Shown here piece by piece: positions 2,566 to 4,674 of a stretch of DNA of 64,000 nt; position 1 is the first letter of the stretch, and every line of letters starts with the position of its first letter. The DNA is from Fibrobacteria bacterium. GTDB lineage: Bacteria; Fibrobacterota; Fibrobacteria; UBA11236. Location: positions 1-64,000 of the forward strand of contig JBGTHM010000053.1 in NCBI GenBank assembly GCA_041746255.1, in the 5' to 3' direction. A program made the translations under genes and the position numbers. The notes beneath the pieces are model-generated. The model ran no database searches and had not been told where the DNA came from. It saw nothing but the letters and a program-made list of their open reading frames with translations.

Positions 2566-2880
2566 ATGCTGAAACATTTATTTTTCGCCTCCATTATCGG
2601 TATCGCCTCTTTCTTGCCCGCAAATGCAGCCTGGGTTCATAACCTCACCGTTAACCATGTTTTTGTAGGAAAATATGGCACTACCCAAGGTCGGGTATAT
2701 GTGGCTGCTTCCAACGGTAGGACATACATAGTGGACTTTGGTCAAGAGTGGGCAAGGGGGATTATGACTGCGGCATTAACGGCTCAATCCACTGGCCGTA
2801 CCATTAGTGTTAATACGACAACTGCTGGCCCATCAACAAACGAATTTTTCATTGACGTGCTCAGAACGAACCCCCAGTAA
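2566..2880 (+). CDS. Small secreted protein, putative OB-fold / AB5-toxin B-subunit-like
   Basis: AAGGA RBS then ATG 2566; signal peptide ending ANA|A; ~83 aa mature; WARGIMTAALTAQSTGRTISV helix-strand motif. Confidence 0.75.
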   Translation: MLKHLFFASIIGIASFLPANAAWVHNLTVNHVFVGKYGTTQGRVYVAASNGRTYIVDFGQEWARGIMTAALTAQSTGRTISVNTTTAGPSTNEFFIDVLRTNPQ

Positions 2881-2885
2881 AATTA

Positions 2886-2922
2886 TTCCACCGCGGAGTA
2901 TGATTCGCGGTGGAAATTTTTT
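2886..2922 (+). terminator. Intrinsic terminator between the small secreted gene and the subtilase
   Basis: TTCCACCGCGGA-gtatga-TTCGCGGTGGAA then ATTTTTT. Confidence 0.75.
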
Positions 2923-2964
2923 CGTCCAAATCACAAAAAATAGACCATAAACCCGGAGTCAAGA

Positions 2965-4674
2965 ATGAGAGTATTGTTTTACCCACTCGTTTCTATGTTT
3001 GGAATCCTTCTGTTAGTCGGGAATGTGGAATCCCGGCCCAACTTTTACTACGCCTTTTCGGAAAAATTGCAAATCAAACCGAATCCCAAGAAGATATTAG
3101 TAAAGTTTCGTTCTGAGCTGGGAAACCCATCTGCTAGGGTTGATGCTATTAAAAGCCGAATTCAGATTCAAAGAGGGCGCCTATTATCCTTGAAACAAAC
3201 GGGCGCTTATCAGGGAATTATTTTCGGACAAACTTCGTTTTCGAAGGAGGAAATAACCACAATTTCCTCCATGTCGGATGTCGAGGCCGCCCTAGAGGTC
3301 TTTGAAACAGAGGATGGCACAGAAATGTCCTATCAAAATGATATCTGCATCCAACCCAAGGCTGATGTTTCCACTCAAGAGGTTCGGGAAATACTATCGA
3401 CCTTTGGAATAACCATCCTCCAGGAAAAGAATTTCATCATCGGAAAGGTCGGAAGTGGAGATGATGCCTTGGAGGTGGCCAATAAGATTTTTGAAACCGG
3501 TAAATTTGAATATGTACATCCCGATTTTTCCATTCCAATTGTCCGAAATCAAATTCCAAACGATACTTATTTCGGATGGCAGTGGAATTTCAGGAATATC
3601 GGCCAACCTATCAATGATGGACATGCAGGAACCCCCAGTGCCGATATAAGAGCCGTAGATGCTTGGAGAGCGGCCAGAGGTCATAACGTAGTCGTTGCCG
3701 TGCTTGACGAAGGAGTTACAAACAATCATCCCGACTTACCCAACACGAGACAAATTCGGTTAAATGGCAGTAATTTCACTTCGAGTGTAAATGCGAACGA
3801 TCCCTCACCTATTGGAAGTGCCAATCATGGAAATGCTTGCGCAGGTCTTATCGCAGCTACAATTAATAATGGTGTTGGAGTCGCAGGAATTGCGCCCAGA
3901 TCTTTTATTCTACCGATTCATATGATTGGCGCTACAAATGCCAATGTGGCCGCTTCAATCGATTTTGCTTGGGAAAACGGAGCACAAATTCTTTCAAATA
4001 GTTGGGGATACGGTTCAGCGAACGCAAACCTTGTTCCAGTCATTGTAGATGCCATCAATCGGGCTTTAACACTGGGACGTGGTGGAAGGGGTAGCCTAGT
4101 AATTTTTGCGGCAGGAAACACTGCAAATCACAATGCTGGAGCTATCGGCTATATAGGGTTTCCAGCAAATGTTGCAGGCGTGGTTACAGTTGGGGCTTCT
4201 GATCGAAATGATCGACAAGCCAATTATAGCCCAACAAGTCCCACAACCGGTAAAACAATCGACCTTGTGGCGCCATCGCATAGAGCCTATCCCTCTCAAA
4301 TACCAGGAGAAGATTTTGAAGTTTGGACCCTCGATATACCGGGTGATCTCGGATACAACCCAAACCAGAACAATGGAGAGCAACTCCCAGCCTCCGGATC
4401 CAGCCCGACCTGGAATAATTACACCGGGCGCTTTGGCGGTACATCGGCAGCCTGCCCTCAGGTTGCTGGTGTGGCAGCCTTAATTCTCGGGTTCAAACCG
4501 GGATTGAGACGGCAAGAAGTTGTCAATATTTTGAGGTCAACGGCTGACCGGGTTGGTCCATATACTTATACAAATGGAAGGAGCCGTGAATTGGGATTTG
4601 GGCGTTTGAATTCATTACGGGCAGTTAGGCAAGCATTTCCTATGGTGGCGGTTTCTACTTTTGCCATGAAATAA
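2965..4674 (+). CDS. Secreted S8 (subtilisin-family) serine peptidase with prodomain
   Basis: Signal peptide; catalytic motifs VAVLDEG, HGNACAG, oxyanion FAAGN, GTSAACP; terminal GFGRLN. Confidence 0.95.
   Translation: MRVLFYPLVSMFGILLLVGNVESRPNFYYAFSEKLQIKPNPKKILVKFRSELGNPSARVDAIKSRIQIQRGRLLSLKQTGAYQGIIFGQTSFSKEEITTISSMSDVEAALEVFETEDGTEMSYQNDICIQPKADVSTQEVREILSTFGITILQEKNFIIGKVGSGDDALEVANKIFETGKFEYVHPDFSIPIVRNQIPNDTYFGWQWNFRNIGQPINDGHAGTPSADIRAVDAWRAARGHNVVVAVLDEGVTNNHPDLPNTRQIRLNGSNFTSSVNANDPSPIGSANHGNACAGLIAATINNGVGVAGIAPRSFILPIHMIGATNANVAASIDFAWENGAQILSNSWGYGSANANLVPVIVDAINRALTLGRGGRGSLVIFAAGNTANHNAGAIGYIGFPANVAGVVTVGASDRNDRQANYSPTSPTTGKTIDLVAPSHRAYPSQIPGEDFEVWTLDIPGDLGYNPNQNNGEQLPASGSSPTWNNYTGRFGGTSAACPQVAGVAALILGFKPGLRRQEVVNILRSTADRVGPYTYTNGRSRELGFGRLNSLRAVRQAFPMVAVSTFAMK

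Follow-up and report, generated by a model that had tools for sequence, protein, structure and literature searches.

AB5-like OB-fold proteins and tailed hydrolases suggest a candidate enzyme-docking system in Fibrobacterota

A 64,000-nucleotide stretch of the genome of an environmental Fibrobacteria bacterium (assembly GCA_041746255.1, contig JBGTHM010000053.1, positions 1 to 64,000 of the forward strand; here called the window) carries a gene for a small secreted protein, P0001, followed by a gene for a secreted S8 (subtilisin-like) protease, P0002. An original prediction, made from the letters alone, had proposed that the two form a new AB5-type system in which a B-subunit-like protein is paired with a subtilase, and our analysis partly supports that interpretation. 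For the small protein, a high-confidence model predicts the oligonucleotide/oligosaccharide-binding (OB) fold seen in AB5-toxin B subunits. Its family is unannotated and repeatedly linked to enzymes, and the partners of this family, unrelated to one another, are by their sequences united by nothing but a short C-terminal tail. The observation is real and goes beyond chance. Taken together, these results suggest a candidate enzyme-docking system in which AB5-like OB proteins are paired with tailed hydrolases.

Predicted fold of the small protein

The small gene encodes 104 amino acids, beginning with a Sec-type leader (MLKHLFFASIIGIASFLPANA) that was read by eye as ending in FLPANA, before AW; similar N termini are found in its homologues. 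As originally described, the mature protein has 83 residues and contains NLTVNHVFVGK and EWARGIMTAALTAQSTGRTISVNT. AlphaFold2 (AF2) modeling on an alignment of 26 sequences, built from genome-derived relatives, gave a predicted local distance difference test score (pLDDT) of 93.6 and a predicted template modeling score (pTM) of 0.81; on only two sequences the pLDDT was 44.8 and the model was unusable. In the model, strands at residues 2-14, 22-27, and 32-37 are followed by a helix at 42-55 and by strands at 58-66 and 72-80, which is the arrangement of three strands, a helix, and two strands predicted to be shared with AB5 B subunits.

Comparisons of this model with solved structures point the same way. 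Among the approximately 40 rows shown by Foldseek against the PDB, all but one were AB5 B subunits, the exception being CipA. These matches include LT-IIb B (E value of 7.8e-4, TMq 0.77), pertussis S5 (TMq 0.80), and PltB (TMq 0.79), and LT-IIc B, CfxB, EcxB, EcPltB, Stx2B, ArtB, and CTB are also listed. VIA-align, which is independent of Foldseek and scores each of 48,161 representative PDB chains, placed pertussis S5 at the top with a Z score of 11.3 and a root mean square deviation (rmsd) of 2.0 over 82 of the 83 residues, followed by LT-II B (10.3), PltB (10.0), a PltB-like chain (9.9), ArtB (9.4), CTB (8.9), and Stx2B (8.7). Generic OB folds scored 8.4 or less. The proposed likeness to AB5 B subunits, which the original prediction had drawn from toxin motifs, is therefore borne out at the level of predicted structure, where it was tested.

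Profile searches and a protein language model agree weakly with this assignment. Sub-threshold profile matches were obtained to LT-IIb B (E values of 0.57-0.78) and, over nearly the full length, to the LT-II B chain of 7prp (0.13) and to ArtB (0.24), the latter two with a helix-Gly-strand motif in register. In the ESM Atlas, a SubB-family cluster ranked 6th, with a score of 0.87. A single-sequence search of PDB sequences with the small protein returned nothing significant.

Distribution of the OB family

Homologues of the small protein include P0003 (68% identity) and P0004 (54% identity). A full HMMER scan (phmmer) of 1.84 billion representatives gave 86 matches, of which 7 are short secreted homologues of 97-114 amino acids. 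The other 79 are long proteins with 3-13 matched stretches each and were treated as repeat artefacts; of these, P0010 and P0018 were read, and each proved to be a repeat protein whose NAEWQRDLSVSH..G-like unit matches the leader and first strand. The part of the small gene encoding leader and first strand (window 2566-2700, ..PANAAWVHNLTVNHVFVG) pulls dozens of such false phmmer matches and forms a trap for automated annotation. "Cake" and PQQ-propeller matches in PDB profile searches were rejected as the same type of repeat artefact, and a candidate on a Rhodospirillales contig (L009, 35 residues at 42%) was dropped because the match falls inside an unrelated 210-residue protein. When 61 related genomes were searched with the single sequence, all matches beyond the gene itself had E values of at least 0.0186.

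With profiles the family could be followed through the phylum. A nine-sequence profile detected it in 14 of 296 Fibrobacterota genomes and a 26-sequence profile in 26 of the 296; with the latter, none of the 101 genomes of the largest genus, nor the one other genome of the window's genus, had a member. A profile search of the open reading frames (ORFs) from 39 fetched loci yielded 52 members, among them the window protein and a form fused to an enzyme. A first metagenome scan with the OB family gave no match and a second gave one locus, L059. The genome's own DNA is present in sequencing runs labelled hot-springs metagenome; no RNA run is among those listed, and three DNA runs yielded just the source assembly and identical fragments at low depth, without variants.

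The genome that holds the window also encodes a second, distant member of 118 amino acids on contig C19 (G000:C19:56609-58291; locus L039, 6610-8292, minus strand). A 430-residue LVIVD-repeat protein ending in ..LTPNVVPIVVTPILLQ is encoded 33 nucleotides (nt) downstream of it, and the same type of OB and LVIVD pair is found in G007 (L038), 53% identical.

Members also occur in tandem. One locus (L065; G288:C42:67100-77500) has six OB genes in a row at 3923-9427, encoding 96-123 amino acids each, after a gene for a 1269-residue PKD-domain protein, and tandem pairs are present in L040, L061, L070, L080, and L084; these arrays bring to mind the B rings of pertussis toxin, which are mixed. At L028 (G093:C25, 845-2968, minus strand), two OB genes with 69% mutual identity flank a single 399-residue DUF4185-like gene.

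In the literature, most subscription journals lying outside the search, we found no published description of such an AB5-like OB family.

Enzyme neighbours and a fusion form

A survey of gene neighbourhoods, as the original prediction had proposed, revealed that homologues of the small protein co-occur with enzymes. In the first 14 loci, the same-strand gene adjoining the OB gene usually encodes 400-730 amino acids with a leader-like N terminus, and these partners comprise DUF4185/BNR-like proteins (4 loci), LVIVD proteins (2 loci), a GH43-like protein, two families that match no Pfam entry, and a GDSL esterase. At the metagenome locus L059 the partner is an esterase-like protein with a GLSMGG motif. 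Pfam assignments for the new loci added a 1031-residue S8 subtilase, two DUF676/PGAP1-type serine esterases, a GDSL esterase, GH43-like and BNR_2 sialidase-like proteins, and a DUF4832 protein. Because the 1031-residue subtilase has only a catalytic core in common with the window protease, at 29% identity, it appears to represent an independent recruitment. An all-against-all BLAST comparison sorted the partners with tails into approximately 14 groups without mutual similarity, and those inspected by eye all start with leader-like N termini.

This breadth bears directly on the cognate inhibitor that the original prediction had raised as an alternative, taken here as an inhibitor or immunity protein that would block the active site of the protease in the periplasm. 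Small leader-bearing genes beside hydrolases are the usual layout of effector-immunity pairs, and the fold also matches the protein-glutaminase pro-region well (Z of 9.7 over 72 residues); nevertheless, we consider this explanation very improbable because one small family pairs with some 14 unrelated catalytic folds, which is beyond the reach of an active-site inhibitor, while the protease already has a long pro-region of its own and in one case an OB domain is fused to the enzyme.

That fusion lies in genome G039 (locus L033, G039:C1:167800-184200), where the gene order is GH43-like, OB, and GDSL esterase with an OB domain. The last 98 residues of the esterase (L033 8451-9548) form the OB domain (profile E value of 1.7e-14), which shares 38% identity with the free OB protein whose gene lies just upstream. 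Elsewhere in G039, a second locus has an OB gene followed by a GH43-like gene with the tail ILPFLQLD and then a GDSL esterase gene with the tail LIPDMLLLD. The tailed GDSL esterase is 36% identical to the fused one over the catalytic part, and thus a tail with a free OB protein and a covalent OB domain look like alternatives for the same enzyme.

A C-terminal tail shared by unrelated partners

The tails that most of these unrelated partners have in common are 10-15 residues long, contain proline, are hydrophobic and nearly uncharged, and often end in LLL[NQD]. Those of the first set include IPIVPTVLSPTLLQ and VPIVVTPILLQ. Those of the new loci include IVPTIITPLLLN (in two unrelated proteins of one locus), PPSIISLLLN, IIPIQQLLLD, LSPILQLLLD, LMPSLLLP, NISSNLLLLQ, and IPVSILLNPLIL, together with the two G039 tails given above.

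To count them we defined a tail by a mean Kyte-Doolittle value of at least 0.9 and at most one charged residue in the last 12 residues, at least one proline in the last 16, and, ahead of the tail, a stretch that is not hydrophobic. This definition was fixed on the first 14 loci, and the 25 later loci had no part in setting it. In the genome of the window it selects 65 of 3179 ORFs of at least 150 amino acids, a 2% class that includes the neighbours of both OB genes. Among the 25 new loci, an immediately adjacent co-directional neighbour has such a tail in four (L060, L063, L064, and L071), with a binomial P value of 0.0016 if one neighbour is counted per locus or 0.018 if two are counted. A regular expression for the end motif found 5 of the 3179 ORFs of this genome (one being the C19 partner), whereas the first loci gave 3 of 76 ORFs and the new loci 8 of 118; the enrichment in the new loci has a Fisher P value of 2e-9, which is too generous since the expression was widened after the new loci had been seen. 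The common tail is a new observation, and it fits the idea of the original prediction that the end of the window protease acts like an A2 peptide.

The window protease and its tail

The protease was originally described as a secreted S8 enzyme with an intact D/H/S triad, and this reading holds. Pfam PF00082 (Peptidase_S8) matches residues 239-546 with an E value of 3.8e-43 and 148.3 bits, against a cut-off of 21.8, and D248, H288, N385, and S494 are invariant in an alignment of 43 sequences (A5), so that the S8 catalytic residues are intact. A leader is followed by an N-terminal pro-region of approximately 170 residues, the long prodomain that had been named as a caveat, and by the catalytic domain from about residue 196.

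The protease clade consists mostly of Bacteroidota-type S8 proteins of 800-990 amino acids with a fervidolysin-like prodomain (PF22148) and a type IX secretion system (T9SS) sorting domain (PF18962, Por_Secre_tail). The T9SS domain is present in many homologues at 44-50% identity and is absent from P0002, which ends in ..AVRQAFPMVAVSTFAMK. On this sequence comparison, the T9SS domain found in its relatives has been lost from the window protease, and a hydrophobic tail stands in its place, in keeping with the short hydrophobic extension noted originally. Its three closest homologues (65-67% identity, 567 amino acids) likewise have no T9SS domain and keep the character of the tail: compared with AFPMVAVSTFAMK of P0002, they end in AFPMTPFMSLAVN, ALPSTPLIGLAMR, and ALPLTTLTRAR. 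Compositionally, the tail of the window protease can be assigned to the same class as the tails of unrelated OB neighbours, an assignment that the analysis supports. To this extent the tail fits the proposed A2-like role; its insertion into a B-like ring is a conjecture to which we return below.

Kinship with subtilase cytotoxin (SubAB) is not supported. The nearest solved relative of P0002 is mirolase (8ehe, E value of 2.5e-39), no subtilase-cytotoxin chain is among the 60 solved relatives listed, and a terminator lies between the two genes.

Contigs of equal length, 6642 bp, are on record for the OB homologue P0003 and for P0096, a protease homologue with 65% identity. This matching length, which is the whole basis for the comparison, suggests that the two may lie on one contig and hence that the pair may be conserved.

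A low-GC insertion carrying both genes

The pair had been placed in an AT-rich islet, and this was confirmed by comparison with related genomes. GC content is 0.38-0.47 over approximately window positions 1200-4400 and 0.50-0.59 from 4600 onward, and both genes lie in a 3.56-kb low-GC insertion that three related genomes (G001, G002, and G003) lack. In G001, which is of the same genus, the flanks (window 319-1216 and 4776-6950) are only 48 bp apart, showing that the islet is a true indel; in G002 and G003 the same flanks lie approximately 770-800 bp apart and the islet is missing. The islet is single-copy in the genome, no direct repeats flanking it were found, and its gene content is just the small OB gene and the S8 protease gene plus approximately 1.35 kb free of ORFs. 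Both genes probably came in together on this insertion.

The order is B-like gene, then enzyme gene, as the original prediction had cautioned, with a gap of 84 nt from the small gene to the protease start. Within the gap, a pattern scan identified an intrinsic terminator with a perfect 12-bp stem, a 6-nt loop, and then A plus TTTTTT. Its RNA fold has a free energy of -21.3 kcal/mol (z of -4.4), and none of 200 shuffled sequences folded equally well. Positions of these features are given in Table 1.

Table 1. Positions of the islet, its two genes, and their parts in the window
Feature	Position	Strand	Basis
Low-GC insertion (islet)	1217..4775	.	Flanks adjacent in G001; absent from G002 and G003; low GC
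Small secreted OB-fold protein gene (P0001, 104 aa)	2566..2880	+	AF2 model, fold matches
P0001 leader	2566..2628	+	
P0001 mature protein, 83 aa	2629..2877	+	
P0001 stop codon	2878..2880	+	
Intrinsic terminator	2886..2922	+	Pattern scan and RNA fold
Secreted S8 (subtilisin-like) protease gene (P0002, 569 aa)	2965..4674	+	PF00082
Catalytic Asp248 codon	3706..3708	+	Invariant column, 43-sequence alignment
His288 codon	3826..3828	+	Invariant column, 43-sequence alignment
Oxyanion Asn385 codon	4117..4119	+	Invariant column, 43-sequence alignment
Ser494 codon	4444..4446	+	Invariant column, 43-sequence alignment
C-terminal tail FPMVAVSTFAMK, protease residues 558-569	4636..4671	+	After S8 domain end ..GFGRLNSLRAVRQA

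The approximately 1.35 kb upstream of the small gene (window 1217-2565) has no ORF of at least 80 amino acids and no Rfam match, and neither the ORFs of this genome nor any of the fetched proteins resemble it at the protein level. Compared with G001, the window has a further indel downstream, at 6951-8214, where 4776-6950 and 8215-8995 match G001 segments that are 96 bp apart; a leader-bearing ORF of 344 amino acids (7108..8142) is thus absent from G001.

A docking model and its alternatives

In AB5 toxins, as summarized in PMC11610972, five OB-fold subunits form a B ring in which one helix per monomer lines the pore, and a C-terminal alpha-helix or segment of the A subunit is inserted in that pore; PMC11610972 and PMC13592729 also describe A subunits that were replaced by new enzymes more than once. 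By analogy, we propose that there are secreted hydrolases of two components in which the OB family supplies the subunit for binding or docking. The enzyme partner would vary (protease, esterase or lipase, or glycosidase-like propeller) and would be recognised not by its catalytic fold but via its extreme C terminus, that is, the 10-15-residue, proline-containing, hydrophobic, and nearly uncharged tail. This tail may plug the centre of an OB ring that is lined by helices and made up of several, probably five, subunits, as the C-terminal segment of A subunits does in AB5 toxins. Through the ring, the hydrolase would be kept on a surface that bears glycans, whether that of prey, a grazer, a substrate, or the producer's own envelope. 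In the window, the presumed cargo is the S8 protease with its tail FPMVAVSTFAMK. One might further speculate that the terminator merely attenuates transcription, in which case the B-first order could yield the small subunit in excess.

An AB5-like lectin ring that docks an enzyme by its tail is our best reading of the data, and we give it an even chance of being correct. A wider version is more tentative, and we would sooner doubt it than accept it: that Fibrobacterota possess a modular docking system of AB5 architecture in which OB rings, in some cases encoded by arrays of up to six paralogues, capture any secreted hydrolase bearing a C-terminal tag of about 12 residues (roughly hydrophobic-P..hydrophobic..LLL[NQD]), giving interchangeable lectin-enzyme complexes with which to attack or hold on to glycan-coated targets, and that they form an environmental, non-proteobacterial reservoir of the scaffold on which classical AB5 toxins arose through exchange of A subunits. 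The window protease pair would, under the same reservation, be one horizontally transferred cassette of that wider system.

Several points weigh against docking by a ring. On the side of the small protein, the mature sequence has no cysteine, as the original prediction had remarked, whereas classical B subunits carry a disulfide. It matches no Pfam family (E values up to 1), B-subunit families such as SLT_beta (PF02258) included, and no NCBIfam family, and Pertussis_S2S3 (PF02918) and Enterotoxin_b (PF01376), searched genome-wide, miss the small gene. Non-toxin folds score high in VIA-align too (the protein-glutaminase pro-region as given above, and CipA with a Z of 9.4), and an OB fold by itself does not prove a pentamer. 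On the side of the tails, 17 of the 25 new loci have no tail-bearing neighbour, although these often involve the weakest family members or contig ends, and the first-set partners L029, L030, and L033_6598 end in polar residues; the tail statistics rest on one genome as background, and related genomes are non-independent. The tail of the window protease does not end in LLL[NQD] and has 12 residues only, whereas classical A2 segments are longer helices. The closest homologue of the protease in the phylum sample, from G086 (51% identity), has a C-terminal extension of approximately 160 residues in place of the tail, and no OB-sized ORF (at least 70 amino acids) lies upstream of it on its strand. 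Finally, tight co-transcription of the window pair is doubtful because a canonical, strong intrinsic terminator stands between the small gene and the protease gene. A complex prediction with four copies of the small protein and protease residues 196-569, made without controls, scored 0.00 against a mark of 0.32 and speaks neither for nor against docking; four subunits would not be the number expected in the ring.

Some of these points would be explained if the small protein were an orphan B-like lectin, that is, a secreted glycan-binding oligomer acting as an adhesin or agglutinin that travels with the protease and does not bind it. The strong terminator separating the genes, the 17 loci without a tailed neighbour, and the departure of the window tail from the consensus ending would all fit, and PMC11610972 describes orphan B subunits of the pertussis family that have no A subunit linked to them. 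We nevertheless regard this explanation as unlikely, though it is the strongest competitor, since tails are enriched in unrelated OB neighbours, a fusion form exists, the protease tail is conserved in homologues, and the islet carries just the two genes.

The tail itself could instead be read as a sorting signal. Partners that share a short tag at the extreme C terminus, leader-like N termini among those inspected, and a protease clade that has exchanged its T9SS sorting domain for a tail would all be expected if the OB protein were a periplasmic helper that recognises tails (a chaperone, secretion pilot, or surface anchor) and not a lectin for foreign targets. This seems still less likely to us: the fold is nearest to glycan-binding toxin B subunits, the GDSL-OB fusion speaks for lasting attachment and not for a passing helper, and the tag is too short for a membrane anchor of the exosortase type.

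If docking by an AB5-like ring is correct, a B-like family in free-living Fibrobacterota would alter the picture of the AB5 scaffold, whose age and range of uses would exceed what toxin biology suggests. Such a system would offer a natural example of A-subunit exchange at scale and would define a very short protein-docking tag together with its receptor. Were the ring to bind the producer's own surface, Gram-negative polymer degraders would have a new means of displaying enzymes. Toxicity is not indicated by any result here, and the organism is environmental.

Comparison with known systems

The arrangement resembles the cohesin-dockerin system by analogy, in that unrelated hydrolases carry one short C-terminal element and a small protein is encoded nearby. 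The two systems differ in that there is no likeness in sequence or fold, and the tag here is a stretch of 10-15 residues and no folded module.

A protease in the A position on a B pentamer has a precedent in the metalloprotease AB5 toxins EcxAB and CfxAB, as described in PMC11610972, and EcxB and CfxB are among the Foldseek matches of the small protein. Those toxins employ another protease class and another B family, and both are enterobacterial. In SubAB, as in the window, an S8 serine protease is encoded beside a B-like OB protein. According to PMC11610972 and PMC13592729, SubAB arose when an AB5 toxin that already existed had its A subunit replaced by a new enzyme. The window protease differs in that its clade is of Bacteroidota type and its long pro-region is fervidolysin-like, with mirolase as its nearest solved relative, and the genes are arranged differently: A then B and co-transcribed in SubAB, B then A with a terminator between them in the window, where the tail is 12 residues long.

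The small protein itself compares best with the B subunits of the pertussis family and LT-II (pertussis S5, PltB, ArtB, SubB, and LT-IIb/c B). These are proteins of Proteobacteria, whereas the small protein is from Fibrobacterota, has no significant sequence similarity to them (best E values of 0.13-0.8), and shares neither Pfam membership nor cysteines with them; its ring and glycan binding are predicted by analogy. What the two have in common is the predicted strand-helix order of the OB fold, a small Sec-exported product encoded beside an enzyme gene, and the best structural matches obtained here, with Z scores of 9.4-11.3, rmsd values of 2.0-2.3 over 79-83 of 83 residues, and TMq values of 0.7-0.8.

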